From positions 93,520 to 157,519 of the forward strand of contig VBKL01000053.1 of NCBI GenBank assembly GCA_005879805.1: a stretch of DNA of 64,000 nt, written 5' to 3'. Position 1 is the stretch's first letter. Each line of letters begins with the position of its first letter. Below the pieces are notes generated by a model. It was not told the DNA's origin and did not search any database. It saw only the letters and a list, made by a program, of their open reading frames with translations. Of the stretch, positions 20,305-59,586 are shown one piece after another. This DNA is from Deltaproteobacteria bacterium (GTDB lineage Bacteria > Myxococcota > Myxococcia > Myxococcales > 40CM-4-68-19). Made by a program: the position numbers and the translations under genes.

Positions 20305-20815
20305 ATGAACACGAGGCGCGAGGTGCTGAAGGCGCTCTCCGCGCTCGGGATTCGGCGCCTCGACCTGCGCGCCACTCCCCGGAGCGCTGGTGGACATCTG
20401 GCACTGCGATGCCGTGGGCATTTATTCGGACGTGCAGGGAGCGACGGGAGAGAACTTCCTGCGCGGCTACCAGACCACGGACGCGAGCGGCGTCGCGTCG
20501 TTCACGACGATCTATCCGGGCTGGTACACGGGGCGGGCGGTGCACATCCACGTGAAGGTGCGCCTGTTTGATTCGGCGAACAATGTGACGACCGAGGCGA
20601 CGACGCAGATTTTCTTCGACGATGCGGTGAGCGACGCGGTTTTCCGGAGCGCGGCGCCGTATTCGTCGCGACCGGCGCGGGACACACGGAACGGGGCGGA
20701 TGGGACTTACGGTAACCGGACGGTGCTCCTGGCTAGCCTGCAGGTGGATGCGGTGGCAGGGTACTCGGGGACGTTTCCTCTAGCGGTGCGGGTGGGGCAG
20801 GTGAACGCGGGCTGA
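20305..20815 (+). pseudogene. secreted intradiol ring-cleavage dioxygenase, disrupted by an internal deletion plus frameshift
   Basis: AAGGAGG and ATG 20305 give the Tat signal MNTRREVLKALSALGI. At about 20350-20366 the frame changes to ...STCAPLPGALVDIWHCDAVGIYS...GRAVHIHVKV (ORF 20390..20815). The region between the signal and the C-x-P-L-x-G-A-x-VDIWHCDA motif is absent. Confidence 0.75.
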
Positions 20816-20865
20816 GCCCACCCTTGCTTGTCCCGGGACAAGCGATCGGCGACGGCTCCGCTAGA

Positions 20866-21912
20866 TCAGGAGACTACCAGCGCGGCGCGCCCCACCACCG
20901 CGTTGTCGCGTAGCAGTTGGTGCGCCGTCTCCGCTTCCTCGAGAGGAAACGTGCGCGTCACCACGGCGCGCAGCCGCTTCGTGCGCAGGAGCTCGAGCGT
21001 CGTTTCCAGCTCCGCCAGCGACACGTACCGCGAGCCATGGATCTCGAGCATCTTGCGGAGCATGAGGCCCGGGTCGACGCGGAAGGTCGGGTCCTTCTTG
21101 AAGACGGCCTGCGGGCGGTTGCCGACGATGACGAGGCGGCCGCCCGGGGCGAGAGAGCGGATGCAGGCCTCGAGCGTCTCGGCGGAGGCGACGAAGTCGA
21201 GGGCAGCGTCCACGCCCTGACCCGAGGTTTGCGCGAGCGCCTGCTGCGCGATGTCGCCGCGGCGTCCGTCGATGACCGCGTCGCCCCCCACGGCCTTCAC
21301 CATCTCGAGCTTGTCGTCGGCGACGTCCGCGCCCAGGACCGATCCGCCGCACAGCTTGGCGACCTGCACCGCATGGATTCCCACGCCGCCGCCGGCGCCG
21401 ACGATGAGCACGCGGTCTCCGGGGCCGATGCGGGCTTCCTCGCGGCAGGCGTGCACGGGCGTCGCCAGCGCGTCGGTGGCGACCGCGGCTTCGAGATCGG
21501 ACACGCCCTCGGGGATTTTGCAGAGGTTGAGCGCGGGCACCGAGACGAATTCCGCGTACCCGCCGTCGGCCGCCATTCCGAGATAGCCGCCGAAGTTGCG
21601 GCAGAGCGTCTCCCGCCCGCTGCGGCAGTACGAGCAGGCGTGGCACGTCAGGTAGAAGTGGCACGCGACCCGATCGCCCGGCTTCACGTTGCGTACGAGC
21701 GGGCCGACCTCGACCACCTCGCCGGCGATCTCGTGACCCGGAATGCGCGGGAACGAGGTCACGAGGCCAGGATTGGCGGTCATGATGACGACGGTCAGAC
21801 CCACGCCGGTCGCGCGCACCCGAACGACAGCCCCGTCCGGCGCGACGGCGGGAACGGGAACCGACTCCAGCCGCACGGCGCCGCCCGATTCCCGCAGCAC
21901 CATGGCGCGCAT
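20866..21912 (-). CDS. zinc-dependent alcohol dehydrogenase (MDR family; butanediol/threonine dehydrogenase-like)
   Basis: 348 aa. GHEIAGEV is present, the structural zinc site is CHACSYCRSGRETLC, and the Rossmann motif is IVGAGGGVG. Confidence 0.9.
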   Translation of the reverse strand: MRAMVLRESGGAVRLESVPVPAVAPDGAVVRVRATGVGLTVVIMTANPGLVTSFPRIPGHEIAGEVVEVGPLVRNVKPGDRVACHFYLTCHACSYCRSGRETLCRNFGGYLGMAADGGYAEFVSVPALNLCKIPEGVSDLEAAVATDALATPVHACREEARIGPGDRVLIVGAGGGVGIHAVQVAKLCGGSVLGADVADDKLEMVKAVGGDAVIDGRRGDIAQQALAQTSGQGVDAALDFVASAETLEACIRSLAPGGRLVIVGNRPQAVFKKDPTFRVDPGLMLRKMLEIHGSRYVSLAELETTLELLRTKRLRAVVTRTFPLEEAETAHQLLRDNAVVGRAALVVS

Positions 21913-21917
21913 GGTGT

Positions 21918-22862
21918 TCACGCGCTCTTCGTCTCGAGGCCGTCGCTCACGGCGATGTTTTCCGGCTTCAGCCGCAGCTGCGCTGACTTGGCTTCCAGCT
22001 CGAGGAGGGCAGCGAAGTCGCAGTCGACGTAGCCATTGCCGATGAGAGTCTGCACCACCTCGCGGGTGGCGGCGGCGACCGGCATCGGCACTTCGCGCTT
22101 GCGCGCCTCGGCGAGCCCGAGGTCGAGATCCTTGCGCAGCAGCAACGGAGTGAAGGTGGGCGCGAAGTCGAGGTTCACGAAGGCCGGCGTCTTGTAGCGG
22201 GTGAAGGTCGAGCCCATCACGCTCTTGTTGATGAAGTCGAGGAAGGCGTGGCGCGGGACGCCCGCCTTCTCCGCCAGCACGGTGATCTCCGCCAGCGACT
22301 GCGCGACGATGCCGAGGAAGACGTTGTGGCAGATCTTCACGGTGCGAGCGAGCTCGCCTTCGCCGACGTAGCTCACCCCTTCGCCGAGCCTTTCCAGATA
22401 CGGCAGCGCTTCTTCGTACGCTTCCTTCGAGCCGGAGACGACCACGCTGAGGCGTCCGGCCTTCACCACCTTGCCGTTGCCGCTCACCGGCGAGGCGAGG
22501 AACTGCGTGCCGGCGGCGGCCGCCGCGGCGCGCACCTTGGCGGAGGCTTCCTGGGACACGGTGGAGCAGTCCACCAGGATGCGCGGGCGGCGGCCGGGGC
22601 TCGCGAGGACCCCTTTGTCCCCCATCGTCACCGCAATGAGGTCCTCGGGCCCGGAAACCATGGTGAAGACGATGTCCCGGTCGGCCAGATCGGCCGGCGA
22701 GCCGACGATGACGGCGCCGTACGCGGTGAGCCCTTCCGCCTTCGAGCGGGTGCGGTTGTAGACGGCGACGTCGCAACCCTTCTCGAGGAGGCGTTTGGCC
22801 ATCGGGAAGCCCATCCGGCCCGTCCCGATCCACCCGAGCTTGTGGCCTTTCGATCCGCTCAT
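21918..22862 (-). CDS. NAD(P)-dependent 3-hydroxyisobutyrate dehydrogenase-family oxidoreductase
   Basis: LGWIGTGRMGFPMAKRL is the dinucleotide fold, and ASPVSGN...GRLSVVVSG is the family core. Confidence 0.88.
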   Translation of the reverse strand: MSGSKGHKLGWIGTGRMGFPMAKRLLEKGCDVAVYNRTRSKAEGLTAYGAVIVGSPADLADRDIVFTMVSGPEDLIAVTMGDKGVLASPGRRPRILVDCSTVSQEASAKVRAAAAAAGTQFLASPVSGNGKVVKAGRLSVVVSGSKEAYEEALPYLERLGEGVSYVGEGELARTVKICHNVFLGIVAQSLAEITVLAEKAGVPRHAFLDFINKSVMGSTFTRYKTPAFVNLDFAPTFTPLLLRKDLDLGLAEARKREVPMPVAAATREVVQTLIGNGYVDCDFAALLELEAKSAQLRLKPENIAVSDGLETKSA

Positions 22863-22969
22863 CGGCGCTCCGTTCGTGCAATCGATTGCAGGGCCCGGAG
22901 CTTAGGCGATGGATGGTTGGTGTCGCAAGGAAGAGTGCGGTGCCAATCGCCGGACGGTATATCTGCGGC

Positions 22970-24013
22970 ATGTTCCGGCCCCGCGTGACCCTTCGCGACG
23001 TCGCCCGGCGGGCACGCGTGCACACCTCGACGGCCTCCAGGGTCCTCAATCCCGCCACCCGGGAGCTGATTACCGAGCCCATCGCGCGCCGGGTCACGAC
23101 GGCGGCGGAGCAGCTCGGATACCAGCCGAATCCAAACGCTTACAGCTTGAAGACCAACCGCACGCGGACCGTCGGGGTGATCATCCCCGACATCGCGAAC
23201 CCCGTCTTCCCTCCCATCCTCCGTGGAATCGAGGACGCTTTCGCCGAGTCGGGGTACACGGCGGTCCTTGCAAATACCGACAACGACGGTGACCGCGAGG
23301 GAACCATCTTCCAGGAGATGCTCGCGCGGCGGGTGGACGGGCTGATCCTCGCCACCGCGCGACGGCGCGATCCGCTGGTCGATCGCTGCCTCCTGGAGAA
23401 GATCCCGGTCGTCCTCATCAACCGCACCGTGGATCGCGGCGACGTTTCCTTCGTGGTCAACGACGACACCTTTGGCATCGGCCTCGCCGTCGCGCACCTC
23501 GCGGCGATGGGTCACGTCCGCATCGCCCACCTCTCGGGTCCGCTCACGCTCTCGACCGGCTTCTCCCGTCACCGCGGCTTCGTCCGCGCCATGAAGAAAG
23601 GCGGCCTGCGCGCCGAACCCAAGCGCATCGGCGTGTGCGGCGGTTTCACCGAGAGCGAAGGCAGGCGTGCGTTCCTCGAGTTGCGAGAGCGCGACCGCAC
23701 CTTCACCGCAGTCGTCGCGGCGAACGACATGATCGCCCTCGGCTGCTACGACGCCGCTCGGGAGATCGGCCTGCGCATCCCCGGGGATTTCTCGGTGACC
23801 GGATTCAACGACATGCCCTTCCTGGACAAGCTGCAACCTTCGCTCACCACGGTGCGGATCCCGCATTACCAGATGGGAGCGCAGGCGGCGCGGACGCTGC
23901 TCGCGAGGCTCAATGGGGGGCTCGCGGCAGTGGAGCACGTGACGCTCTTGCCCGAGCTCGTCGCGCGCGATTCGACCGCGGCACCCTCGAGGAGGACGAG
24001 ACGCGGGCGCTGA
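22970..24013 (+). CDS. LacI-family transcriptional regulator
   Basis: The N-terminal HTH is VTLRDVARRARVHTSTASRVLN. The periplasmic-binding-fold core is VGVIIPDIANPVF...VVAANDMIALG. Confidence 0.9.
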   Translation: MFRPRVTLRDVARRARVHTSTASRVLNPATRELITEPIARRVTTAAEQLGYQPNPNAYSLKTNRTRTVGVIIPDIANPVFPPILRGIEDAFAESGYTAVLANTDNDGDREGTIFQEMLARRVDGLILATARRRDPLVDRCLLEKIPVVLINRTVDRGDVSFVVNDDTFGIGLAVAHLAAMGHVRIAHLSGPLTLSTGFSRHRGFVRAMKKGGLRAEPKRIGVCGGFTESEGRRAFLELRERDRTFTAVVAANDMIALGCYDAAREIGLRIPGDFSVTGFNDMPFLDKLQPSLTTVRIPHYQMGAQAARTLLARLNGGLAAVEHVTLLPELVARDSTAAPSRRTRRGR

Positions 24014-24014
24014 C

Positions 24015-25112
24015 TCAGAGATCGCGCGCCCAGTCCCTGCCCTCGAGGATCTCCTTCACCCGCCGCAGGAACGAGGCCGAGTACGCGCCGTCGAAAGCGC
24101 GGTGATCGAACGACTGCGCGAGAACGCCGATGGGCCGCACCGCGAGGGCATCGCCCACCACGGCCGGCCGCTTCGTCACGGCGTCGAGGGAAAGGATGGC
24201 AACCTGGGGCGGGTCGATGATCGGCACGGTGAGCAGTGTGCCGAACTTCCCCGAATTGGAGATGGTGTAGGTCGCGCCGGATACTTCGTCCGCGGAGAGG
24301 CGTTTGTCGCGGGCCTTCTCCGCAAGCCCACGCATCCGCCGCGCCAGATCGGCGACGCCGAGGTTTCCCGCGTCCTTCACGACCGGGACGAGGAGGCCCT
24401 CGGTGCCCAGGTCGACGGCGACGCCCAGGTGGACCGCCCCGTGCAGGACCAGCCCATCTCCCTCCACGCTCGCATTGACGTTGGGGAACTCGCGGATGGC
24501 GGCGCAGACGGCATGCGCGACGAACGGCAGCAGGGTCAGGTTGAAGCCTTCCTTCGCCTTCCAGGCCTCCGCGGCGGCGAGCCGGACCTCCTCGACGGGC
24601 AGGAAATCCACCTCCACCGCCTGGAGCACGTGAGGAATGGTCCGCCAGGACAGCGCCATCCGCTCGGCGGTCACCTTCCGGATCCGGCTGAAGGGCACGA
24701 CCTTGCGTTGCGGCGCCCCGCGCTGCGCCAAGTGCGCGAGGACGTCGTCGCGCGTGATGCGGCCGCCAGCGCCGGTCCCCTGGATCGCCGCGGCGTCGAG
24801 TCCGTGCTCGGCGAGGAGCTTGCGCACCACCGGAGAGAGGCGTGTCTCCTGCACTCCTGGCTCGCGCGTAGCTTGAGACCCCGGCTCGGAGATCACGGCC
24901 AGCTTCTCACCGACCCGCACCGTCGCGCCTTCTGCGACGAGGATCGCGCTCACCACACCCGTCGCGGGCGACGGCACGTCCATGTCCACCTTGTCGGTAT
25001 TGACCTCGAAGAGCGGCTCATCCTTCTCGACACGCTCGCCGACCTTCTTCCGCCAGGCGATGACGGTGCCTTCCTTCACCGTCTCGCCGAGCTGGGGCAT
25101 GACGACGTCCAT
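24015..25112 (-). CDS. 2-oxoacid dehydrogenase complex E2 (dihydrolipoamide acyltransferase; AcoC-like)
   Basis: It has a lipoyl domain (EVNTDKVDMDV), an E3/E1-binding domain (SPVVRKLLAEHGLD) and the catalytic motif DHRAFDG. Confidence 0.9.
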   Translation of the reverse strand: MDVVMPQLGETVKEGTVIAWRKKVGERVEKDEPLFEVNTDKVDMDVPSPATGVVSAILVAEGATVRVGEKLAVISEPGSQATREPGVQETRLSPVVRKLLAEHGLDAAAIQGTGAGGRITRDDVLAHLAQRGAPQRKVVPFSRIRKVTAERMALSWRTIPHVLQAVEVDFLPVEEVRLAAAEAWKAKEGFNLTLLPFVAHAVCAAIREFPNVNASVEGDGLVLHGAVHLGVAVDLGTEGLLVPVVKDAGNLGVADLARRMRGLAEKARDKRLSADEVSGATYTISNSGKFGTLLTVPIIDPPQVAILSLDAVTKRPAVVGDALAVRPIGVLAQSFDHRAFDGAYSASFLRRVKEILEGRDWARDL

Positions 25113-26089
25113 CAGCCCGCATTCCTACGAACGGTCTCGACGATCCGATCCACGGTGGGCACCGCGTTGTCTTCGAGCAGATCGGCGGCGGGCAGCGGTA
25201 CGTGAGGCGTGGTGATGCGCACGATGGGCCCGTCGAGATCGTAGAAGCACTCCTCCGCGACGAGCGAGGCGATCTCCGCTCCCCAACCGCACAGCCGCGG
25301 ATTCTCCTCGACCGTGTAGAGGCGACCCGTCTTCCGCACCTCTTCGAAGATGGTCTTCGTGTCGAGCGGCACGAGAGATCGGACGTCGACCACCGTGGCC
25401 GAGATTCCGTCCTCCGCGGCCAGCCGCTCGGCGGCTTGCAGCGACTTCGGAACCATCGCCGCGAGAGCCACGATGGTGACGTCCTCTCCCTGGCGCACGA
25501 CTTTCGCGGTGCCGAGGCGATCGACGATTTCGCCGTCGGGCACCTCGCCTTTCGTCGAGTAGAGCCCTTTGTGCTCGAAGAAGATCACGGGATCGGGATC
25601 CCGCACCGCGGCCGCGAGCAACCCTTTCACGTCCAGAGGCGTCGAGGGCGCGACGACCTTCAGGCCGGGAATCGCCATCGCCCAGTTCTCCACGCTCTGC
25701 GAATGCTGGGCGCCGAAGCGCGACCCGTAGCCGTTCGCCGTGCGGATGACGAGCGGCAGCGCGATCTGTCCCGCGGTCATGTAGCGGGTCTTGGCGATCT
25801 CGTTGGCGATCATGTCCCAGCAGACCGCGAAGAAATCGGAGAACATGATCTCCGCGATCGGTCGCAGCCCGGTCATCGCCGCTCCCATCGCCGCCCCGAT
25901 GATCGCCTGCTCGGAAATGGGCGTGTCTCGCACGCGCCTGGGCCCGAACCGCTCGAGGAGCCCGAGGGTGGTCTTGAAGACTCCGCCCGCAGCGCCGATG
26001 TCCTCGCCGAGGAAGACCACGCTCTCGTCGCGCGCCATCTCCTGCGCAATGCCGGCGGCGACGGCGTCCCGGTAGGTCAGTTCCGCCAC
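25112..26089 (-). CDS. 2-oxoacid dehydrogenase E1 beta subunit (AcoB-like)
   Basis: The GTG start lies 6 nt after GGAGG. AELTYRDAVAAGIAQEMARDESVVFLGEDIG is typical of transketolase-like E1 beta. 325 aa. Confidence 0.9.
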   Translation of the reverse strand: MAELTYRDAVAAGIAQEMARDESVVFLGEDIGAAGGVFKTTLGLLERFGPRRVRDTPISEQAIIGAAMGAAMTGLRPIAEIMFSDFFAVCWDMIANEIAKTRYMTAGQIALPLVIRTANGYGSRFGAQHSQSVENWAMAIPGLKVVAPSTPLDVKGLLAAAVRDPDPVIFFEHKGLYSTKGEVPDGEIVDRLGTAKVVRQGEDVTIVALAAMVPKSLQAAERLAAEDGISATVVDVRSLVPLDTKTIFEEVRKTGRLYTVEENPRLCGWGAEIASLVAEECFYDLDGPIVRITTPHVPLPAADLLEDNAVPTVDRIVETVRRNAG

Positions 26090-27078
26090 GACGATCCTCC
26101 GTCGGCCCACACGTCCTTCTCGATGACCTCGACCCCCGAAGGCGGACAAGCCTTGGCGGCCTCGGTAGCCTCGTCCACCGCGCGCTCCACGGCGCGCTCG
26201 ATGTCGCGCAGGGCGTTCTCCTCGATTCCCATCCCGACCAACCGGACCCGGTAGAGCACGACGGGGTCCTTCTTCAACCAGTCGTCGAGCTCCCCCACCG
26301 GCCGGTACTTGCCGGGATCGGCGCGCGAGTGCCCGCTCGTCCGGTAGGTCAAAGCCTCGACCAGCGACGGACCGCCGCCGTCCCGCGCTTTGCCGATGCA
26401 TTCCCGCGCGGTGCGGTGAACGACGTCGGCGTCATTTCCGTCGATGAGGATCTTCTCGAGTCCGTACGCGCAGGCGCGGTCCGCGGCAGGATTCGCGACC
26501 GCCGTCACCTCACGGATCGGCGTGTACTCCATGTACTGGTTGTTCTCGCAGACGAAGATGACGGGGAGCTTCCAGACGGCGGCGAGGTTCAGCGCCTCGT
26601 GGAAGGCGCCGATGTTGGTCGTGCCGTCTCCGAAGAAGCAGACCGATACTTGATCCGTTCCGCGGACCTGCGCCGACCACGCCGCGCCGGCAGCCACCGG
26701 AAGATGAGCTCCGACGATGGCGTAGGAGCCCATCGCGCCGTGCTCGACGCTGGTGAGGTGCATCGAGCCGCCCTTTCCCCCCATGAGCCCGCATTTGCGA
26801 CCCATCAGCTCGCCGAGGACGCCGACCATCGGCGCGCCGCGGGCGAGCGTGTGGGCGTGGCCGCGATAGGTGCAGAAGGTGTAGTCGTCCTTCCGCATCG
26901 CCACCGCGAAGCCGGCGGCGACCGCTTCCTGGCCGAGCGAGAGATGGCTCGTGCCCTTCACGAGGTTCTGCAAGAAGAGATCATAGGCGCGCTTCTCCAG
27001 CACGCGGATCTCGACTAGCGACCGGTAGAGCGCGAGCCGCGTCGCTCGATCCATGTCGTCAGTAGGCGTTCGCGACAA
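26077..27078 (-). CDS. TPP-dependent 2-oxoacid dehydrogenase E1 alpha subunit (AcoA-like)
   Basis: The TPP motif is GDGTTNIGAFHEALNLAAVWKLPVIFVCENN. 333 aa. Confidence 0.9.
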   Translation of the reverse strand: MSRTPTDDMDRATRLALYRSLVEIRVLEKRAYDLFLQNLVKGTSHLSLGQEAVAAGFAVAMRKDDYTFCTYRGHAHTLARGAPMVGVLGELMGRKCGLMGGKGGSMHLTSVEHGAMGSYAIVGAHLPVAAGAAWSAQVRGTDQVSVCFFGDGTTNIGAFHEALNLAAVWKLPVIFVCENNQYMEYTPIREVTAVANPAADRACAYGLEKILIDGNDADVVHRTARECIGKARDGGGPSLVEALTYRTSGHSRADPGKYRPVGELDDWLKKDPVVLYRVRLVGMGIEENALRDIERAVERAVDEATEAAKACPPSGVEVIEKDVWADGGSSWRN

Positions 27079-29168: not shown

Positions 29169-29185
29169 GCCGGTCCGGCCGGCGC

Positions 29186-43170: not shown

Positions 43171-43189
43171 GAAACGGCTCCCGCGGTAG

Positions 43190-43860: not shown

Positions 43861-43900
43861 GCGCTCCGCATAGCGGAAAGCGCCCCCGATTGACAATCCG

Positions 43901-44713: not shown

Positions 44714-45436
44714 CGTCGTCCTCCCGCAGCGAGGCGAGTGCAGGGTCGCGCTGAAGCTCGAATCGGTGAAGGTGTTCGCGACCCACCAGCCGACGCCCAT
44801 GCCAGCCACCGCGGGGAGGCGCGGAACGAGGGCGCCGCGGACTTCCTTGGCGACGGACTTGGTCAGATGTCGTGCCTCGCGCGCTCCGCGGGCCATGCCG
44901 GGCGGGAGAGCGGCTCCGCCGTACGGTGCGAGTACGCGGTCGCGGTCCTCGCAGGCACGCAGGGCAGCGGCGCGGGCGGCCCGGGCCAGTTCCGCGGCCG
45001 GAACGGTGAGCGAAGAATCGTCGTCGAGGGCGTCGCCGCCCAGCCGCTCCCAGGCGACGGACAGTTCCTTGCGCGCCCGGTACAGGCGGGCCCGCAGGAC
45101 GCCGCGATGGGCGAGGCCGCGCAGGATCACCAGGGGCCGGACGAGCGCGGGCACCTCGGCGTAGTCGGCGCGGTCGTCGTCGAGAGAGCGGCCCAGCGAA
45201 CTGGTGATCGCGTCGCACTTCGAGCGGCGTTCCCCGACTTCGTGCAGCGACTCGGAGAGGCGCTCGGCGAGATCGTCGCGGGAGCCCAGCGACTCGCCGA
45301 GCTTTTGCAGAGCGAAACCGTGCTCGCGAAGCGCGCGGCGCTCCTGGCGAGAGAAGCGGAAGGCAGCGATGCCCGCCGAGACGCGCTCCCGGATGGGGAC
45401 GTGCTTCGGCGGAGGAACGGAGAGAGTGGATTCCAC
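44714..45436 (-). CDS. hypothetical protein-coding region with no stop codon before the downstream ICL/PEPM gene (same frame)
   Basis: 241 codons with clear GC3-rich coding bias, starting at ATG 45436. There is one hydrophobic segment near the end (LPAVAGMGVGWWVA). It reads straight through the downstream RBS and ATG, so it is either a fusion or a gene truncated at its 3' end. Confidence 0.45.
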
Positions 45437-48903: not shown

Positions 48904-48906
48904 GAG

Positions 48907-50148
48907 TTAATTCGTCGGCAGCTTCCGCGGGTACTTGATCTTCGTCTCCGCCCACTTGCTGGGGAACACCACTTTGTAGTCGCCGCCCTGCACCTGGTAC
49001 AGCACCATCGGCTTCTTGGTGTTCTTTCCCGTCTCGTCGAACTTGATGGGTCCGTAGAAGGTCATCACGTCGGTCTTGGCGATGGCGTCGCGGACCTTGG
49101 CGGGATCGAGCGAGCCCGCCCTCTGGAACGCATCGGCGAAGACCAGCACCGAGGCAGTCGACTCGGCGGCCTGGTACGGCGCCGGATAGTTGAACTCCTT
49201 CTGGAAGGTCTTCGCGTAATCGTCGGCGCTGCCGAACCACTTGTCTTTGTAGGCGAGCGTCCGATCCCACTGCGAAGCGCAGAGGATGCCTTCCGCCTGC
49301 TTGCCCATCGTCTCGGCGATCTTCGCCGAGTCGCAGTGGGTGGTGGCGACGATGGGAACGTCGATCTTCATCTCCGAGGTCTGCCGGACGAGCAGCGTGG
49401 CGCCTTTCTCGTGACCGGAGACGAGGAGCAGATCCGGCTTCACCGCCTTCACCTTGGTGAGCGTGGCGGCCATGTCGTTGATCTCGGGCGGAAGCTTGTC
49501 GTCGACGAGCACCTTCATGCCGTGCTTCTTCGCCGCCTCGAGGATGCCGGCGCGGACGTCGAGGCTGAAGGGATCGTTCTCGAAGGCCATGGCGATCTTC
49601 ATCGACTTCGGATCGCGGCCGTTCTCCTTCGCCACCTCGGCGGCCATGTTGACCGCGTCGCGCAGGTAGTAGTCCGAGGTGGAGAGCACCCCGAACAGGT
49701 ACTTGTAACCCTCGGTGAAGAGCTCGCGGGCAGCGCCGTTCCCCTCGACGTGCGGCACCTTGTACTTCTCGGTGATGGGCGCGATCGCCTTGGTGAGGCC
49801 GGAGCTGTACGCGCCGAGGAGGAACTTGACGCCGTCCTGGTTGATGAGGCGCTCGGCCAGCTGCGCGCCGCGCGCCGGCGTGGATTCGTCGTCGTAGTAG
49901 ACAATCTTGAGCTTGTACGACTTGCCGCCCACCTTCACGCCTCCCATCTCGTTGAGGCGCTTGATGGCGAGGTCGTAGCCGTCCTTCGTGTTCTTGCCGT
50001 TCACCGAGTACTTGCCGGTGAGCGAGACCGCCGCCCCCAGGTTGATGGTGTCGCCCTCGGTCTGCGCGGTGGCGCCCGTCGGCCCGTACAGAAACAGGAG
50101 CGCCGCTGAGGCCAGTGCCAGTGCCATCTTCCCGGTTGCCGTCGACAT
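48907..50148 (-). CDS. ABC transporter substrate-binding protein (Leu/Ile/Val-binding protein family)
   Basis: 413 aa with a signal peptide. INLGAAVSLTGKYSVNGKNTKDGYDLAI is a type-I PBP motif. Confidence 0.88.
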   Translation of the reverse strand: MSTATGKMALALASAALLFLYGPTGATAQTEGDTINLGAAVSLTGKYSVNGKNTKDGYDLAIKRLNEMGGVKVGGKSYKLKIVYYDDESTPARGAQLAERLINQDGVKFLLGAYSSGLTKAIAPITEKYKVPHVEGNGAARELFTEGYKYLFGVLSTSDYYLRDAVNMAAEVAKENGRDPKSMKIAMAFENDPFSLDVRAGILEAAKKHGMKVLVDDKLPPEINDMAATLTKVKAVKPDLLLVSGHEKGATLLVRQTSEMKIDVPIVATTHCDSAKIAETMGKQAEGILCASQWDRTLAYKDKWFGSADDYAKTFQKEFNYPAPYQAAESTASVLVFADAFQRAGSLDPAKVRDAIAKTDVMTFYGPIKFDETGKNTKKPMVLYQVQGGDYKVVFPSKWAETKIKYPRKLPTN

Positions 50149-51759: not shown

Positions 51760-51777
51760 GACGTCCTCTCCTGCTTC

Positions 51778-52887
51778 CTAGACCTGGGCCGCGCCGCGAA
51801 ACACGCGATCGGCGAGGGCCGCGACGGGAACCGCGAAAAGGACGATCGCCGTCATCCAGAAGCGATGACCATAGTTCGAGGCATCCCACATCCGATACGG
51901 GGCGAACACTGCCATCTGCGCGGCACAAAGGGCGGCGCAGAGGGCGGCCTCGGCACGCGCCCGCCGCGCGAGGAGGAAGAAGCCGGGCACCGCGAAGAGC
52001 GCTTGAGGCGCGGAGCGCAAGAGCCCGAGTCGAGGATCGACGATCTGCGACCAGAGGCCGGCGAAAAACGGCCGATCGAACATCAGCCGGTGGCTCGGCT
52101 CGATCCGGAATCCTTCGCCGAGGACGCGATCGTAGGGCGTGACGAACGGCGATCCGAACATGTGGAAATCGAGCAGCGCGAGAGCGAGCAACACCGGCGC
52201 GGCCGCGAGCGCGAAGCGGATCGAGGGCCGCAGCCCGGAGGTCGCGATCGCGTAGGTGCCGGCGATCGGCAGGAAGACGAGGTTCGTCCACTTGGCGGCG
52301 ATGGCGAGACCGAAGAGGAGGCCGGCGGCGGCCAAGCGGCGGCTCACGAGCGCGAGATAGCCGCCCACCACCAGCACGGAGGAGAAGACGTCCGGCGAGA
52401 AGTTGTACGCGACGGGCCGCAGGAAGGATCCGAAGGCGAACCAGACCGCGACGACCAGGGCCACGCCGTCCGAGGTCAGGCGCCGTGCGAGGAAGAACAC
52501 GAGCACGTCGAGGAGCGCAACCTGCAGCACGTTGAAGGCGAGAAGCCCCTGGTCGCCCAGCGACGCATAGAAGGGCAGCGCCGCGAGGGGGAGGAGAATC
52601 GGGTGCTTCGGATACCACTCGCCGCGGGCTCCGAGCGCCACCTGGCCCTGCGGGCGCACCACGTTCCAGGCCATGTCGTCGTGGAGATCGAGATCCTTCT
52701 CGCGCAAAAGTGACAGAGCCGTCGCGCGATAGAAGGGGCAGTCGCCCGGAAGATACGTGGGGAGATGGAACGGCCGGCCGTCGCTCCCGCGGTACACGCG
52801 ATCCTCGATCTGCGGCCGGACCTCGTCGAAGTAGAGGCCGGCGACGACGGCGAGGAAGAGCGCCGCAGCGGGAGCTCCCGCCCTCAC
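51778..52887 (-). CDS. polytopic membrane protein, GT-C glycosyltransferase-like (putative)
   Basis: 369 aa with at least 9 hydrophobic segments. The first extracytoplasmic loop is acidic (EKDLDLHDD), as in ArnT/PMT-type enzymes. Weak assignment. Confidence 0.5.
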   Translation of the reverse strand: MRAGAPAAALFLAVVAGLYFDEVRPQIEDRVYRGSDGRPFHLPTYLPGDCPFYRATALSLLREKDLDLHDDMAWNVVRPQGQVALGARGEWYPKHPILLPLAALPFYASLGDQGLLAFNVLQVALLDVLVFFLARRLTSDGVALVVAVWFAFGSFLRPVAYNFSPDVFSSVLVVGGYLALVSRRLAAAGLLFGLAIAAKWTNLVFLPIAGTYAIATSGLRPSIRFALAAAPVLLALALLDFHMFGSPFVTPYDRVLGEGFRIEPSHRLMFDRPFFAGLWSQIVDPRLGLLRSAPQALFAVPGFFLLARRARAEAALCAALCAAQMAVFAPYRMWDASNYGHRFWMTAIVLFAVPVAALADRVFRGAAQV

Positions 52888-54044
52888 AGATGGACCTGCG
52901 CGATCCAGCGGGGCCAGAGCGAGTCGTTATGGATGCACTCCGCGAGGAAGGCGAAGATGGCGAGCCGGGCAAGGCGGACGGCAGGCCTGCGCGCCGGCGC
53001 GCCGAGCCAGGGCACCAGCGCCATCGAGTACCACGAGTAGTTCTGCCGCACCTGGGTCAGGACCAGCGCCAGCCAGGCAACGAGGCCCGCGTCGAGCGGC
53101 GAGCGCGCCCAGACGAAAACGGCTCCCGCGGCCACGGCGAGAGCGGCCCCTTCCAGGAGCGCGGCACGATCGAGGGCAGCGGTTCGCAGGAAGAGGGGAT
53201 TCATTTGCATCGGGTAGTCGAGAAGTCCCGGCAACGCGAGCGCGAAGGTCGCGACGGAGACGGCGAGAAAGAGCACTCCGACGGCGATCTTCACCTGGTC
53301 GGTGCGCTGCAACGCCGTGCGTCCGCGGAACACCAGCACGGCGGCGGCGAGGCCCCAGGGCACGTAGTACAGGGCGCGGAAATGAAGCAGCATCGCCACC
53401 CCGAAGGCGAGGAACGCCGAGGCCCCGAAGCCCGCGGCGAGGAACGCGTCGCAGAGGAGCAGCGGCAACACGATCGAGGCGTCGTAGAAACCCTCTAGCG
53501 ACCAGTGGATGAGGACGCTCGCGCCGAGCAGGGCGCAGAAGGCGCCGAGCGGGCCGTCGACGCGATCGAGGATGGCGAAGATGGCAACGTGGGCCAGGGC
53601 CAGGCAGAGGACCACCAGCAGCCGGTCGATGGTCGCCGCGCGGATCGGCGTAAAATGGTAGAGCGCCGCCATCGGCGCGAAGAGCAGCAGATCGCCCGGC
53701 GGGTAGAAGCGCGTCAGGAAAGGCCACGACTGCTGCATCGGCTTCTGCGCGGGCCATCCGTCCACGTGGAAGAGACAGCCGTCGGGGCAATCGACGATGT
53801 CGGGCGGCAGCGCCGCGCGTTCTCTGGGCGTGACCCTCCGCTCCATCCCGGCGAGCGGGGTCGTCCATTGGCGCACGCCGGCGCGCGGGAAATGCCGCGC
53901 GTCGTTCATGTGCGAGAAGTGATCGGTGAAGAAGCCGTTCGAGAGATCGCCGAAGGGATGCACCTTGCGGGTCATCTCCCACGCGGAGAACCCCGCGAAC
54001 GATGCGGCGGTGAGTGCGACGGCAAGCCGCCTTCGCCAAGGCAC
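52884..54044 (-). CDS. polytopic membrane protein of unknown function
   Basis: The stop overlaps the start of 51778..52887 (4 nt). Many hydrophobic segments. The start is uncertain; I chose GTG 54044 to avoid overlapping the divergent M28 gene. Confidence 0.5.
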   Translation of the reverse strand: MPWRRRLAVALTAASFAGFSAWEMTRKVHPFGDLSNGFFTDHFSHMNDARHFPRAGVRQWTTPLAGMERRVTPRERAALPPDIVDCPDGCLFHVDGWPAQKPMQQSWPFLTRFYPPGDLLLFAPMAALYHFTPIRAATIDRLLVVLCLALAHVAIFAILDRVDGPLGAFCALLGASVLIHWSLEGFYDASIVLPLLLCDAFLAAGFGASAFLAFGVAMLLHFRALYYVPWGLAAAVLVFRGRTALQRTDQVKIAVGVLFLAVSVATFALALPGLLDYPMQMNPLFLRTAALDRAALLEGAALAVAAGAVFVWARSPLDAGLVAWLALVLTQVRQNYSWYSMALVPWLGAPARRPAVRLARLAIFAFLAECIHNDSLWPRWIAQVHL

Positions 54045-54127
54045 GACGCCTTCTACCGGGGGCGGCCGCAAGGGACAAGGAACCCGCCCCCATGCCAGAG
54101 TGCGCCTCCCGCAAGGAGGATGTCGCA

Positions 54128-55555
54128 ATGGCGCTCGCAGTTCTCTTCCTCGTCGCCGCACCCTACCCTCCGGCGCTCGCCGAGCGGGTCGTCGGAACCG
54201 CCTTGCGCGACGGCGTCGCGTACTCGCGGCTGCAAGACCTGACCGATTCGGTGGGACCGCGGCTGACTGGCTCGCCCGGAGCGGAAGCCGCGGTGGCCTG
54301 GGCCCTGCAAAAGTTCCAGGAGGACGGCGTATCCGCGCACACCGAGCCCGCCACCGTTCCCCACTGGGTGCGCGGCGAGGAACGCGCCGAGCTTCTGCCC
54401 GCGAAAGGCGTCGCCGGATTGAAGCTCGCCGTGACCGCGCTCGGCGGAAGCCCGGGCACGCCGTCCGACGGGATCGAGGGCGACATCGTCGAGGTGCATA
54501 CCCTCGCCGAGCTGCAGGCGCTGGGCGCCAGCGCGAAGGGCAAGATCGTCTTCTTCAACCACGCGATGAGCACGGCGTCCGGGAAGACGACCGGCTACGG
54601 CGCTTTCGTCGATCTGCGAACGCACGGGCCCGCCGAGGCAGCGAAAGCCGGGGCGGCAGGCGCGTTCGTGCGGTCTCTCGCGACCGCCAGCTTCCGCTCG
54701 CCGCATACCGGCGCGACCGATTTCGCGGAGGGGGCTCCCAAGGTGCCGGCGGCGGCCATCTCGACCGAGGATGCCGACCTCTTCCACCGCCTGCTCGCGA
54801 AAGGCGCGCAGGTGCGCGTGAAGTTGTGGCTCGGGTGCAAGACGCTGCCCGACGTGCAGTCGGCGAACGTGGTCGCCGAGGTGCGCGGCCGCGAGAAGCC
54901 CGAGGAAGTCGTGCTCCTCGGAGCGCATCTCGATTCCTGGGACCTGGCGCAGGGGGCGATCGACGACGGCGCCGGCGCGGTGATCGTGATGGAGGCCGCC
55001 CGTCTCGCCGCGCAGCTTCGTCCAGCACCCCGTCGCACGATTCGCGTGGTCCTCTTCATGAACGAGGAGAACGGGCTCGCCGGCGGGAAGGCGTACGCCA
55101 AGGCCCATGCAGCCGAGGCACCCCGCCACGTCGCAGCCCTCGAATCGGACAGCGGAGCAGGCCGCCCGCTCGGCATCGTCCTCCGCGCCGGCGGAGACGG
55201 AAAGGCGCTCCTTGCGCCCTGGCTCGCGCCGCTGCAGACCGTCGGCGCAGCCAGCTTCGTCGACGGCGAGGCCGGAGGCGCGGACATCTCCCCGCTCGGA
55301 CCGCTGCAGGTTCCTTTCGTCAGCGTGCGCCAGGACAACACGCACTACTTCGACTTGCACCACAGCGCGGCCGATACTTTCGACAAGGTCGATCGCGACG
55401 CTCTTTCCAGGACGGCTGCCGCAGTCTCCTGGGTCGCGGTCTCGCTCGCCGAGATGGAAGGAACGCTGGTGCGGCCTCCTCCGACGCCGCCCCGCCAGCG
55501 CGCTGCTCCGGATCAACCGCAGCCGGCGGCCACGCCGCCACGGAGCAATCGATGA
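54128..55555 (+). CDS. M28-family metallopeptidase (aminopeptidase), exported
   Basis: Signal MALAVLFLVAAPYPPALA. Zinc ligand contexts are GAHLDSWDLAQGAIDDGAG, MNEENGLAG and HHSAADT. A PA-domain-like insert is present. Confidence 0.88.
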   Translation: MALAVLFLVAAPYPPALAERVVGTALRDGVAYSRLQDLTDSVGPRLTGSPGAEAAVAWALQKFQEDGVSAHTEPATVPHWVRGEERAELLPAKGVAGLKLAVTALGGSPGTPSDGIEGDIVEVHTLAELQALGASAKGKIVFFNHAMSTASGKTTGYGAFVDLRTHGPAEAAKAGAAGAFVRSLATASFRSPHTGATDFAEGAPKVPAAAISTEDADLFHRLLAKGAQVRVKLWLGCKTLPDVQSANVVAEVRGREKPEEVVLLGAHLDSWDLAQGAIDDGAGAVIVMEAARLAAQLRPAPRRTIRVVLFMNEENGLAGGKAYAKAHAAEAPRHVAALESDSGAGRPLGIVLRAGGDGKALLAPWLAPLQTVGAASFVDGEAGGADISPLGPLQVPFVSVRQDNTHYFDLHHSAADTFDKVDRDALSRTAAAVSWVAVSLAEMEGTLVRPPPTPPRQRAAPDQPQPAATPPRSNR

Positions 55556-56862
55556 TGGTCACGTTGCGCAGCTACGTGGAGGATCGCTGGGTCGAAGGCC
55601 AGGGGGGCCTGTCAACCTTGGTGAACCCGGCTACGGAAGAGCCGCTCGCGCGCGCCGGAACCTCGGGCATCGATTTCGGCAAGTCGCTCGACCATGCGCG
55701 CACCCGCGGCGGGCCCGCGCTCCGCGAGCTGACCTTCGCGCAGCGCGGTGAGCTGTGCCGTGCCTGGTCGAAAGCGCTCCATGCCGCGCGGGACGAGTTG
55801 AGCGAGAAGGCGGCGACTGCGCTCCTCGGGGGAATGCCGATCCTGAGCAAGCCCGCGACCAGCACGGCGCTCGTCGCGCATCGGGTGGCGGAGATCGGGA
55901 TCCCGCTCCTCCCCAAGGGGAGCTTCGGGTTTCTCGCCGGCTCGACCGGAGATCTGCTCGATCGGCTCGGGCCGCAAGACGTGGTGGCGTTCACCGGCTC
56001 GTCCCAGACGGCGAACAAGCTTCGCGAGCAGCTCTCCCGGCGGGGAGCGCGGCTCAACGTGGAGGCCGATTCGCTCAATGCCGCGGTGCTAGGTCCCGAC
56101 GTGCATCCGGGGAGCGCCACTTGGGATCTGTTCGTCGCCGACGTGGTCCGCGACATGACGCAGAAGACCGGCCAGAAGTGCACGGCGGTCCGTCGCATCT
56201 TCGCTACGAGCGCCCAGAAGCAGGAGGTACGGGACGCGCTCGTCGAGCGGCTCTCGGCGGTTCGAGTCGGCGATCCCGCGCGAACCGAAGTGACCATGGG
56301 GCCGGTGTCGACCGCCGATCAGCTTCGCGACGTGCGCGCCGGGATCGGGCGCCTCGCGAAGGAGGCCGAGGTCGTGGTGGGTGGCGACGCGCCCCCCAAG
56401 GCGCTCGCGCCGGACGGCAAGGGCTACTTCGTGGCCCCGACGCTTCTCGTCGCCCGCGACGCGCAGGCCGCCCGCGCGATCCACGAGGACGAGGTGTTCG
56501 GGCCGGTGGCGACGCTCTGCATCGCGGAGGCGGACAAGCTCGCCGATCTGGTGAGGCGCGGAGGTGGCGGCCTCGTCTGCTCGGCGTTCAGCGACGACCG
56601 CGATTTCCTGCGCAAGCTCGTCCTCGCCGTCGCGCCTTACCACGGGCGCATCTACCTGGGGAGCGAGAAAGTTGCAGGTCAAACCTTCGGTCCGGGCACC
56701 GTGCTTCCGCAACTCGTCCACGGAGGGCCGGGCCATGCGGGCGGCGGCGAGGAGCTGGGTGGAACGCGCGGCATGCAGCTCTACTCGCAGCGCGTCGCTC
56801 TGCAGGGCGACCGCGCAATCCTCGACGCGGTCGCGCCGATGCTCGCGAAGCAGGAGGCGTGA
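55552..56862 (+). CDS. PaaZ-type aldehyde dehydrogenase (3,4-dehydroadipyl-CoA semialdehyde dehydrogenase-like) carrying an in-frame internal deletion; probably inactive
   Basis: It retains KPATSTA, FTGSSQTA, VEADSLNA (Glu) and GQKCTAVRR (Cys). The sequence goes directly from ..KALHAARDEL to SEKAATALLGGMPILSKPAT at about 55795-55805. This skips the segment that in ALDHs contains the FNFP Asn. It is 436 aa, versus the roughly 510-530 I recall for the family. Confidence 0.7.
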   Translation: MMVTLRSYVEDRWVEGQGGLSTLVNPATEEPLARAGTSGIDFGKSLDHARTRGGPALRELTFAQRGELCRAWSKALHAARDELSEKAATALLGGMPILSKPATSTALVAHRVAEIGIPLLPKGSFGFLAGSTGDLLDRLGPQDVVAFTGSSQTANKLREQLSRRGARLNVEADSLNAAVLGPDVHPGSATWDLFVADVVRDMTQKTGQKCTAVRRIFATSAQKQEVRDALVERLSAVRVGDPARTEVTMGPVSTADQLRDVRAGIGRLAKEAEVVVGGDAPPKALAPDGKGYFVAPTLLVARDAQAARAIHEDEVFGPVATLCIAEADKLADLVRRGGGGLVCSAFSDDRDFLRKLVLAVAPYHGRIYLGSEKVAGQTFGPGTVLPQLVHGGPGHAGGGEELGGTRGMQLYSQRVALQGDRAILDAVAPMLAKQEA

Positions 56863-56963
56863 GCCGTCTCTTCCTTCAGTGACCGAACAGCATCGCGACG
56901 TTCACCCAGAAGAGATTTCCCCCCTTCGAGCCCGTCGTCGGCGCACGAGCCATTGACAGCGGG

Positions 56964-57572
56964 TCAAGGAGCGAGCTCCCCGGCGACGCTGAAGCACAGG
57001 CAAAAGCCTGCCGCGCTGGGTCCGGGCGCAAGACCGCTGCTGACGCCCGGGTTCCGATTGGGATCGAAGCCCGGAGGTGGCCCCGTGCCACGCCAGTTCA
57101 GGACATCCAGCTCGAGGCCGAGCGCGAGCCTGGGAAGGATGAAGGCGCGAAAGCCGACACCCGCCTGGGTCGCGAGTCCCACCTCCCCGACGGTTGCAAC
57201 GCTCTCGTCGACGTCGGTACTCGCGCGGACGAGACGGCCGACCCCGACTCCGAGCTGAAACAGTCCCTGGAACCGGCCGGGATTGTGGAAACGCACCTCG
57301 CCGAGAAAGGACCAGGCGCGGTTCCCGGCGCCGCGTCCGAATCCGCCCTGCCCGCCCGGGATGAAGTCGACGCCTTCCGGGCCGAGGACCCCGGTCACTC
57401 GCAGACCAGGTTCGAAGAATTCCCAGAAATCCATCCCCGCGCGAACGGACAACACTGGCGCGAGGACGGAAGAATCGATCGCTCCGCCAGCGCCCGCGCC
57501 CAGCTCCAGACGCACATCGCCGCCTCTCGCGGCCGCCGGCAGTGCGAGGAGGATTCCGAGCAGCGCGCGCAC
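56964..57572 (-). CDS. small outer-membrane beta-barrel protein (possibly frameshifted near its 3' end)
   Basis: A signal peptide is followed by alternating Gly/aromatic beta strands. A more typical terminal strand (GGNLFWVNVAMLFGH-stop at 56876) lies in another frame downstream. Confidence 0.55.
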   Translation of the reverse strand: MRALLGILLALPAAARGGDVRLELGAGAGGAIDSSVLAPVLSVRAGMDFWEFFEPGLRVTGVLGPEGVDFIPGGQGGFGRGAGNRAWSFLGEVRFHNPGRFQGLFQLGVGVGRLVRASTDVDESVATVGEVGLATQAGVGFRAFILPRLALGLELDVLNWRGTGPPPGFDPNRNPGVSSGLAPGPSAAGFCLCFSVAGELAP

Positions 57573-57667
57573 GGCGCGGCCTCATGCATTCCTCGTACTA
57601 GCTGCGCTCGCGAATGATTCCGCGCTATTTCGCAGCCGAGCGCGCGAGGGACCGCGACAACCGTGTC

Positions 57668-58386
57668 CTACTGCGTCGCGTGCCACTCCGCGTAGAGCTT
57701 GTCCGCCTCGGCGACGAAGTCCTCATGCCGCGGCCGCCAGTCGAGCTCGGTGCGCGCCTTCTCGCTCGAGACCTTCTGGTCGAGGGCCAGCGCATCGGCG
57801 AACGGGCCCATCTGCGCCCTCGCCTTCTCGATGGGCTGGACCGAGACCTCACCCTTTCCCGCAGCGCGGCTGCAGGCCTCGGCGATCTCGCGCAGCGTGT
57901 GGGTGGATGCATCGGCGGCGTGGAAGATCGATCCGGCGGGAGCGCGCTCGACGAGGCGCACGTAGAGCTCGGCGAGATCGTCGCGGTGCACGAGCGGCCA
58001 GTGGTTGTTTCCTTCGCCGATCATCTGCGCGGCGCCGTGCTTCGAGGCCGTGCCGAAGAACATGGCGGGGACGCCGCCCGGGCCGCCGTAGACGATCCCC
58101 GGACGCACCACCACGGCGCGGATGCCGTCCTTCGCCAGGTCGAGAGCAGCCTGCTCGTGCGCGGGTCGCCACGCCACCGCCTGGGCTGGCTTGAGCGGGT
58201 GCTTCTCGTCGGCGGCATCGCCCTCGGTGTTGCCGAGGACCCAGATGCCGCTCGTGTAGATGAACGTCCCTCCGACGCTGCCGTGGAGAAGCTCGCGCGC
58301 GGTGGAACGTCGTGGCCGGCCTTCTTCAGGCGCAGTGCGACAGCGCTGCCGATGTACCCGGTCCCGCCGGTGACGAACACCTTCAT
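57668..58386 (-). pseudogene. NAD(P)-binding epimerase/dehydratase-type SDR with an internal deletion and frameshift
   Basis: ATG 58386 gives MKVFVTGGTGYIGSAVALRLKKAGHDV. At about 58300-58306 the frame changes to ARELLHGSVGGTFIYTSGIWVLG...WRPRHEDFVAEADKLYAEW. Most of the Rossmann beta2-beta4 region is missing. Confidence 0.75.
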
Positions 58387-58685
58387 CGAGGCTGGTCCTC
58401 CAATATGGCTCGGGCGGAGTCTCTACGCCGAGCGAGCCTTTCCGCCAAGAGGATCCACGTCCGTCCTGGTCCGCGGCCGGGCAGGCGCCTGCATAGCCGG
58501 CTACGCACCGCCACCGCCGCTTCGCGGCAAAACGGTGGGACATGTGGGTGTGATACGTACCCGGAATGTACCTAAGCGCTCGAAGTGTTTGGGGTTCGTA
58601 GCCTGACGCACGCCGACATTAAACGGTCTCGTGTTTGCTACAAGGCAGTGACGGGCACGTAACGCCACGCGGGAGTCAGCACCGA

Positions 58686-59586
58686 ATGCACGGCAACGTC
58701 GAGCGCCTTCCGGTCACCCAGAAGAAGGTCGCAGTCCTCCTCAACGGAAATGCCCGGGCCGTCACCGAGCAGCTCCGCCGGGAGCTCGAGCAGTTCGTTC
58801 CGCCCGAGGACCTCTTCTTCTCCCGCAGCTTCGAAGACGCCCGCAGCATCGCCCGGACCGTGCTCGATCGCGGCTACGGCACCGTGCTCACCGGCGGCGG
58901 CGACGGCACCTTCGTCGGCTACGTGAACTGCATCTACGACGAGGTGGCGCGCGGCCAGCCCCACCTCTTCGTCCGGGCCAGCGGCGGCAGCGCCGCCCCT
59001 CTCGCGGCCTCCCACAGCTTCCAGCTCCCCCGCTTCGGCGTCCTGCGTCTCGGGACCGGCAACGCGCTCGCGGAGTTTGCGGGCGCGTCCGGCCGGCGCC
59101 GTGCTCTCCGAGCGCACCGTTCCCATGGTCGAGGTGGTGAACACCGGCTCCCCGGCGCAGCAACTCGACTGGACCGGCAAGCCCGTCGGCCGCGAGATCC
59201 GTCGTGGCGACGTCATCTACCGCGGCCCCTGCCGGATCGCCGCGGCCGGCACGGTCCCCTGCTACGGCTTCGGCTTCCGCATCTTCCCCTTCGCCTTGCG
59301 CGCGCCGGGCCAGTTCCAGCTGCGGCTCTCCTCGATGAGCCTGCCGCAGATGCTGTCGCAGGCTCCGCGCATCTGGCGCGGCATCACGCCGCGCAAGGGC
59401 GTCGCCGATTTCCTCTGCGACAGTGTCCACGTGAAGTTCGATCGGGAGATGCCGTTCCAGATCGGCGGGGACGCGGAAGGGTATCGCAGGGAGCTCGAGC
59501 TCGAGATGTGCGATCAGCCGCTCGAGCTGCTGGACTTCAATTGCGGGCCGCTCTTGCAGGGGCGGCGGCCGTTCGCTAGCGCTTAA
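58686..59586 (+). pseudogene. diacylglycerol/lipid kinase catalytic-domain protein (YegS/LCB5 family), frameshifted
   Basis: The sequence is KKVAVLLNGNA...VLTGGGDGTF...LRLGTGNALAEFAGASG. The frame then switches at about 59091-59101 to VLSERTVPMVEV...AAAGTVPCYGFGFRIFPFA...QIGGDAEG, ending at TAA 59584-59586. Confidence 0.7.

Follow-up and report, generated by a model that had tools for sequence, protein, structure and literature searches.

Recurrent losses of about 200 bases in a deltaproteobacterial sequence are almost certainly assembly joins with the gap omitted

Eight missing blocks in the window

The window, i.e., the whole 64-kb stretch of deltaproteobacterial DNA analysed here, lacks eight clean blocks of 180–246 bp each when compared with more than 40 near-identical contigs that other assemblies have recovered from the same soil population. 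The sequence does contain these internal losses of ∼200 bases, yet almost certainly as assembly joins from which a gap has been omitted and not as biological deletions. We put a probability of about 0.9 on the reading that the junctions are scaffold joins whose gaps collapsed, with N runs removed or contigs abutted at zero length, an artefact that creates false pseudogenes. The organism itself has full-length genes; the population encodes all of them intact.

The reference contigs come from independent assemblies, are 99.2–100% identical to the window, and include MEGAHIT k141 contigs, CRIT18-1 scaffolds, JGI contigs, and the NCBI MAG GCA_005879295.1. Genes were defined by direct comparison with these sister contigs, GC3/Viterbi frame segmentation being too coarse for the purpose. 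Each of the eight blocks is found in 3–11 other contigs (flanks 99.2–100% identical), every other assembly of the population carries full-length alleles at 99.9–100% identity, and the window alone lacks the blocks. The losses measure 60–82 codons, within the 50–85 codons estimated in a preliminary description of this DNA, and five of the eight shift the reading frame. The same description had called the recurrence of such losses unusual; there are more of them than it noted. Against eight losses of 180–246 bp, the 64 kb holds no indel of 1–179 bp, a size pattern far beyond chance. All but one of the eight junctions fall within the right-hand 23 kb, and the window contains no N.

Affected genes

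We number the junctions J1–J8 from left to right. Five of them (J1–J3, J5, and J6) had already been named in the preliminary description, and comparison with the sister contigs confirms all five as real, within a few bases of where they had been placed. At J1, between 20350 and 20351, 212 bp are missing from a Dioxygenase_C gene on the + strand (ATG at 20305, stop at 20815). The loss takes codons 16–86 of a 240-aa intradiol dioxygenase and shifts the frame. The 212 bp are present in L091 and L101 (scaffold_3 of SAMN08902837) and in L097, and the intact 240-aa product matches PF00775. At J2 (40756–40758, centred on 40757), 204 bp are missing where an MFS gene meets a cupin (gentisate-dioxygenase-like) gene, both on the − strand. 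The loss takes MFS residues 392–454 and the stop codon that follows them, as well as the initial 13 nt of the cupin gene (its first four codons), leaving an MFS read-through ORF of 482 aa (40481–41929). This junction had been thought to remove an intergenic region as well; the loss of the MFS 3′ end and the first cupin codons is real, but intact alleles have no intergenic region, the end of one gene overlapping the other by 1 nt. Eleven contigs span J2, 10 of them uninterrupted (L001, L078, L079, L081–L083, and L085–L087 among them), and L080 has an N run there.

Two further losses follow within 4 kb of J2 on the − strand. J3, between 43440 and 43441, lacks 190 bp of an FAA_hydrolase (FAH) gene (43190–43896), i.e., codons 153–216 of 298, with a shift of frame; seven spanning contigs have the block intact. 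J4, between 44733 and 44734, lacks 180 bp: a 288-aa ORF loses residues 235–288 and its stop codon, and 16 nt of spacer are gone as well. This is the missing stop that had been observed in the ORF upstream of the ICL-like gene: the loss fuses the 288-aa ORF to the PEP_mutase gene in a 511-aa ORF (43901–45436, − strand). Nine spanning contigs contain the J4 block.

J5, between 55801 and 55802, is an in-frame loss of 246 bp (residues 84–165 of 518) from an aldehyde dehydrogenase gene on the + strand (55552–56862), and J6, between 58306 and 58307, is a frame-shifting loss of 181 bp (codons 27–87 of 299) from an NAD-dependent epimerase/SDR gene on the − strand (57668–58386); eight spanning contigs have each of these blocks intact. 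A frameshift had also been considered possible in an OMP gene at 56876–57100. It does not exist: eight other assemblies are collinear with the segment 55802–58306, and L107 matches it at 100% identity. The damage reported near 59095 in a DAGK_cat lipid kinase gene (58686–59586, + strand) is real, although it is not a plain frameshift. It is a loss of 215 bp at 59097–59100 (J7) that takes about codons 139–210 of 371 and shifts the frame; nine spanning contigs have the block. J8, between 62782 and 62783, lies outside the range described earlier and lacks 206 bp where two divergent ORFs meet. A 281-aa ORF on the + strand loses its first 37 codons (remnant 62783–63516), a 238-aa HEAT-repeat ORF on the − strand loses its first five (remnant 62081–62782), and the 79-nt divergent intergenic region is missing too. 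Seven spanning contigs contain the J8 block. The affected genes thus extend beyond aromatic catabolism to the lipid kinase, the NAD-epimerase, the ALDH, the HEAT-repeat ORF, and unannotated ORFs.

The length difference by itself would also fit an ancestral window, with insertions (mobile elements, introns, or inteins) in the other assemblies. It is all that this reading accounts for, and the gene content refutes it. The extra blocks encode conserved family cores, and single collinear Pfam matches run through them in the intact alleles (FAA_hydrolase, PF01557, positions 1–214/214 at J3; Aldedh, 1–406/461; Epimerase, 1–236/240). Moreover, a frame shift results from five of the eight losses, and the blocks have no common sequence or terminal repeats. 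We give insertions practically no chance.

Junction sequences and mutational spectrum

By base-by-base inspection, exact microhomology at J1–J8 is 0, 2, 0, 0, 0, 0, 4, and 0 bp (TC at J2, where it makes the position ambiguous, and GGCG at J7), which is the chance expectation; the search for microhomology proposed in the preliminary description thus yields nothing above that level. An apparent enrichment was rejected: BLAST overlaps hinted at 4–6 bp at three junctions but are in fact over-extensions through mismatches. No restriction-site pattern, GATC or otherwise, is visible by eye at the block boundaries. At five of the eight junctions, the lower-coordinate flank begins with an identical dinucleotide (TC when read in minus orientation; P about 1e-4, uncorrected). 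The collapsed-gap reading gives no account of this shared start, and we count it against that reading.

Clean junctions with little or no microhomology resemble NHEJ products, and the sizes are unusually uniform. Both features would suit a sub-lineage that carries eight double-strand-break or NHEJ-type (microhomology-independent) deletions of ∼200 bp and was recovered by this sample's assembly. We nonetheless consider real deletions very unlikely. Apart from its eight losses, the window has two private SNPs and no private small indels in the ∼48 kb that at least three other assemblies cover; there is no mutational decay, and eight large losses on such a background match no known spontaneous spectrum. 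Eight unrelated genes would have been destroyed within 42 kb. In addition, no tested junction or deletion-specific product occurs in any other assembly, several of which come from the same site. Three deletion-specific products, including the 511-aa fusion at J4 and the deleted product of J5, are not on record in a collection of 153 billion gene positions, and junction-spanning patterns of J3 and J5 have 0 matches in JGI metagenome contigs; by these products and patterns, the deleted alleles are not recoverable from independent data.

One explanation that had been offered combines a specific deletion process with relaxed selection on the catabolism of aromatics. It finds no support: the window has just two private SNPs and no private small indels, the affected genes are not confined to aromatic catabolism, and no independent assembly has any of the tested junctions. 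There is, likewise, only a very slim chance that a sub-population underwent a burst of uniform, microhomology-free end-joining deletions of ∼200 bp concentrated in 23 kb. If true, such a burst would imply a size-constrained, localised process of DNA breakage and repair.

Contig boundaries at the junctions

The junctions are assembly breakpoints. For three of the eight, a contig start or the end of an N-gap in the SAMN08902837 assembly falls on exactly the same base: L080 (scaffold_3) starts exactly at window position 43440 (J3), a 10-N gap of L080 ends exactly at 40756 (J2), and a 10-N gap of L109 (scaffold_68) ends exactly at 62782 (J8). Further contig ends cluster close by. L004, L006, and L007 end within the missing block of J3 or ≤5 bp from it; 59–70 bp from J5, L006 starts, L109 ends, and L004 turns chimeric; and inside the missing block of J6, L001 starts, L112 ends, and L109 has a 56-bp defect of its own. 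By our own tally, ∼10 of ∼62 true contig ends in the sister assemblies lie within ∼75 bp of a junction, versus ∼3 expected, a ∼3-fold enrichment. A systematic assembly or consensus artefact was the other explanation offered in the preliminary description, and these boundaries, together with the full-length alleles in all other assemblies, support it.

The contig starts at three junction boundaries could also be produced by a deletion polymorphism in the de Bruijn graph of SAMN08902837, and on the real-deletion reading the graph branches of the deleted alleles would make sister assemblies break at the same places. However, an allele bubble would show k-mer overlap, whereas the left contigs in the SAMN08902837 assembly stop 4–34 bp before the boundary, some of them ending in junk sequence. 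Comparable defects occur at other places in a sibling deposited MAG, which also speaks against real deletions; its N runs have true missing lengths of ∼157 and ∼255 bp. Narrow sizes, chance-level microhomology, and the lack of Ns would also follow if the blocks had been cut out after assembly by editing or masking unrelated to contig boundaries (e.g., random or deliberate excision in data preparation). Random excision, however, cannot account for three of the eight sites, which match to the base the points where contigs start or N-gaps end in an independent sister assembly. Nor can it account for the excess of contig ends from other assemblies at the junctions, and we regard post-assembly excision as highly improbable.

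The sister assemblies are likewise fragmented in the right-hand 23 kb, where the sibling MAG is only 95% identical to the window, compared with ∼99% in the left part; together, these observations suggest strain heterogeneity that breaks assembly graphs in this region. The missing blocks themselves were considered as strain-hypervariable segments and rejected as such, with 0–1 variable positions in five of the eight. In a scan of GTDB genomes, the best match of a 413-aa binding protein is at 88% aa identity in Myxococcales MAGs, whose loci have no syntenic flanks and no homologues of the affected genes.

Probable origin of the missing blocks as collapsed gaps

Under the collapsed-gap reading, the window would come from the MAG of a Myxococcales-like soil deltaproteobacterium, as a scaffold built from short metagenomic reads. 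Read pairs would have linked two neighbouring contigs at each of eight points while the intervening 180–246 bp were presumably never assembled, and the flanks now abut without N. The N runs may have been stripped during sequence preparation or deposition, or a scaffolding or curation step may have shut the gaps at zero length. Every collapsed gap would then mimic an internal deletion or frameshift of its host gene. The narrow size range may reflect gaps that exceed the reach of the largest k-mer or read but are shorter than the library insert.

The frequency and the size of the gaps can be compared with those of the sister scaffolds. These contain ∼20 N-gaps in ∼180 kb, or ∼1 per 9 kb; with eight in 64 kb, the junctions of the window are equally dense. 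The N-gaps of the CRIT18-1 sister scaffolds conceal 4–199 bp, and the window has no small gap at all; its size distribution is therefore unlike simple N-stripping of a scaffold from the CRIT18-1 pipeline, which would not yield so tight a range as 180–246 bp, and this counts against the collapsed-gap reading. Missing lengths that match the window losses in size are seen only in the sibling IDBA MAG, in just two gaps.

Implications and comparison with known systems

Taken at face value, the window would contain eight pseudogenes and a decaying gentisate/aromatic catabolic cluster. Unmarked collapsed gaps in MAG scaffolds lead to false truncations, fusions (e.g., the 511-aa and 482-aa ORFs), and frameshifts, and recognizing them is of use in quality control. 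Such false gene defects spread into protein databases and into analyses of pseudogenes or 'relaxed selection', and they can be located to within a few bases from motif order alone.

Pseudogenes form by deletion in genomes undergoing reductive or relaxed-selection decay, as in Mycobacterium leprae and Rickettsia. The window resembles these genomes in that internal losses and broken frames occur in several genes that are otherwise conserved. Unlike them, it has no excess of substitutions, no small indels, and no stop-codon mutations; the intact alleles are 99.9–100% identical in the flanks, and the losses are common to no relative. Deletions mediated by replication slippage or microhomology arise between short direct repeats. 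They too can remove blocks of ∼0.2 kb inside genes, but six of the eight window junctions have no microhomology and the 2 and 4 bp at the other two are at chance level.

It is documented that gaps and local assembly errors in MAGs built with IDBA-UD or metaSPAdes can leave protein sequences incomplete or incorrect (PMC7111523; Chen et al. 2020, Genome Res). The window differs from ordinary short-read MAG scaffolding gaps in that its flanks are directly abutted without Ns and its missing lengths are unusually uniform (180–246 bp). In other respects it resembles them (PMC7111523): the breaks fall at contig boundaries, presumably bridged by read pairs alone, they occur about once per 8–9 kb as in the sister scaffolds, they yield truncated or frameshifted gene calls, and other assemblies of the population supply the complete sequence.

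Eight blocks are absent from the window

The window has a G+C content of 65–71% and contains no N in its 64 kb. By exact-protein look-up, an identical periplasmic binding protein (window 48907–50148, minus strand) occurs in 23 soil-metagenome contigs, and look-ups stepping along the entire window yielded more than 40 sister contigs. These comprise MEGAHIT-style k141 contigs (ENA ERZ272.../ERZ273...), scaffolds named ‘CRIT18-1_SAMN089028xx’, JGI contigs (Ga0066xxx and Ga0209xxx), one Logan contig, and two contigs from the NCBI MAG GCA_005879295.1. All are 99.2–100% identical to the window in their aligned parts; the nearest other species in a GTDB scan are Myxococcales and Deltaproteobacteria MAGs with at most 88% amino acid identity.

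Local BLAST alignments of the sister contigs to the window are long and gap-free, broken only at eight points (J1–J8), where every sister contig carries extra sequence that the window lacks. Junctions, loss sizes and microhomology were read off base by base. The window has lost 212 bp at J1 (20350/20351), 204 bp at J2 (40757), 190 bp at J3 (43440/43441), 180 bp at J4 (44733/44734), 246 bp, in frame, at J5 (55801/55802), 181 bp at J6 (58306/58307), 215 bp at J7 (59097–59100), and 206 bp at J8 (62782/62783). There are no further length differences; window 1–20350 and 20351–40756 are collinear with the sister contigs. A preliminary description, which read genes against expected motif order, had proposed recurrent internal losses; these are real and extend to eight sites. 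The five junctions it named, in an intradiol dioxygenase, an MFS–gentisate dioxygenase pair, an FAH-family hydrolase, a PaaZ-type aldehyde dehydrogenase (ALDH) and an SDR, correspond to J1, J2, J3, J5 and J6, each a few bases at most from its proposed position. The missing stop codon of the ORF upstream of the ICL gene is the J4 loss. A defect in the lipid kinase is likewise genuine, but it is the J7 block loss rather than a simple frameshift. The suspected OMP frameshift at 56876–57100 does not exist: eight assemblies align collinearly with window 55802–58306, and one sister contig (L107) matches this stretch identically. J8, beyond the range first described, is a loss of like kind that removes a divergent promoter region together with the 5′ ends of the two ORFs on either side, one of 281 aa and the other a HEAT-repeat ORF of 238 aa.

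Gene tables of intact sister contigs give the normal products: Dioxygenase_C (240 aa), MFS (454 aa), Cupin_2 (345 aa), FAA_hydrolase (298 aa), an unannotated ORF (288 aa), PEP_mutase (270 aa), Aldedh (518 aa), Epimerase (299 aa), DAGK_cat (371 aa), and two ORFs of 281 and 238 aa. In the intact alleles, Pfam matches extend collinearly across the residues that the window lacks (e.g., FAA_hydrolase 1–214/214, Aldedh 1–406/461, Epimerase 1–236/240). It is therefore the window that is derived and shortened; the same matches refute insertions in all other genomes. Window 39732–45436 has a gentisate-type aromatic catabolic gene order (cupin dioxygenase, MFS, FAD monooxygenase, FAA hydrolase, PEP-mutase/ICL-like) and adjoins a branched-chain-type ABC importer. 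This cluster is whole in every sister assembly.

The losses do not resemble spontaneous mutation

Each missing block is present in 3–11 other assemblies, and comparison of the sister contigs shows that the blocks are not unusually variable. Exact-protein look-ups returned no public record of the in-frame ALDH lacking 82 residues, and there is none of the 511-aa fusion of the 288-aa ORF to the PEP mutase or of the 482-aa MFS read-through. Patterns spanning J3 and J5, with 0–30 intervening bases allowed, gave zero matches in JGI metagenome contigs; this population is present in several JGI samples.

A pile-up of sister contigs (∼48 kb at ≥3-fold cover) places the window at odds with all other assemblies at four positions; two reflect alignment over-extension at J1, leaving two private SNPs. 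Over the same ∼48 kb the window has no private small indels. A spectrum of eight deletions of 180–246 bp with two substitutions and no 1–179-bp indel is not one that spontaneous mutation produces, and no decay accompanies it. Real end-joining deletions within a sub-lineage are thus very improbable: this spectrum contradicts them, no junction is common to any other assembly, and sister contigs end before they reach the boundaries instead of overlapping them. The deletion process under relaxed selection initially considered is unsupported.

Microhomology is 2 bp at J2, 4 bp at J7, and 0 bp at J1, J3, J4, J5, J6 and J8. This is the chance level, which excludes slippage and overlap-based joining; the flanks are simply concatenated. 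At J1, J2, J3, J5 and J6 the lower-coordinate flank (window 20350, 40757, 43440, 55801 and 58306) begins with TC on the minus strand (on the plus strand, GA precedes the junction), a pattern noticed post hoc (five of eight; binomial P ∼1 × 10−4, uncorrected).

Junctions coincide with assembly breakpoints

The window junctions are contig boundaries. In the SAMN08902837 assembly, scaffold_3 (92 kb) starts exactly at window 43440 (J3), a 10-N gap in scaffold_3 ends exactly at 40756 (J2), and a 10-N gap in scaffold_68 ends exactly at 62782 (J8). Scaffold_68 also has its own 56-bp defect within the J6 block and an end 70 bp from J5, and scaffold_1066 has one end within the J3 block and is chimeric from 63 bp off J5. 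The chimeric end of scaffold_1066 (L004:1–314) is 314 bp of foreign sequence. Contigs from other pipelines (L084, L006, L007, L001 and L112) end, as a group, at J2, J3, J5 and J6. By our own count, ∼62 contig ends are true ends, and about 10 of them are no farther than ∼75 bp from a junction, versus about three expected. Arbitrary excision after assembly, which leaves this base-exact match to another assembly's boundaries unaccounted for, is likewise very improbable.

Sister scaffolds carry ∼20 N-gaps in ∼180 kb (∼one per 9 kb); the window, with eight junctions over its 64 kb, contains no N. In the sibling MAG GCA_005879295.1, N runs of 97 and 235 hide ∼157 and ∼255 bp, the same size class as the window losses. 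Losses without any N occur in this MAG as well: in contig VBLJ01000248.1, 53 bp are missing opposite window 21402–21454, which splits an ADH gene, and 36 bp opposite 20308–20343, in a dioxygenase signal peptide.

Seven of the eight junctions lie within the right-hand 23 kb, where sister assemblies are fragmented too. The sibling MAG is ∼95% identical to the population consensus on the right (window about 52000–64000; L110 versus L105) and ∼99% on the left (about 14000–27000; L092 versus L091). Divergence and clustering together fit an assembly graph broken up by strain heterogeneity, and the sequences suggest that a divergent strain co-occurs or that the segment there is recombinant.

Collapsed scaffold gaps as the probable source of the losses

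With the blocks missing only in the window, junctions at contig boundaries, and decay absent, we assign a probability of roughly 0.9 to collapsed scaffold gaps, by N-run removal or zero-length abutment, as the source of all eight losses. The window would be a paired-end scaffold with eight inter-contig gaps collapsed, its N runs perhaps taken out at deposition or data preparation, or its contigs abutted at zero gap length. The narrow size range may lie between the bridging limit of the largest k-mer or read and the span of the insert size. The losses are more uniform than the CRIT18-1 scaffold gaps (4–199 bp), with small gaps absent, so the window's pipeline differed from that of CRIT18-1. The systematic assembly artefact offered as the other explanation in the preliminary description is thus the supported one, given the blocks in other assemblies and the junctions at contig boundaries. 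In MAGs from IDBA-UD and metaSPAdes, scaffolding gaps and local assembly errors affect protein sequences (Chen et al. 2020, PMC7111523). Here, the scaffold joins produce spurious pseudogenes and ORF fusions, which are of little interest scientifically but serve as a quality flag.

Other genes in the window

NMT1-type ABC substrate-binding genes at window 30123–30950 and 31135–31962 are tandem paralogues with 73.6% DNA identity. At 36602–37144 (plus strand), every sister assembly has calls for a pair of short ORFs, of 68 and 73 aa, that match AhpC-TSA/Redoxin weakly and adjoin an intact 171-aa redoxin (36060–36575). They look like a genuinely split redoxin paralogue common to the whole population, in contrast to the J1–J8 losses, which are found in the window only.
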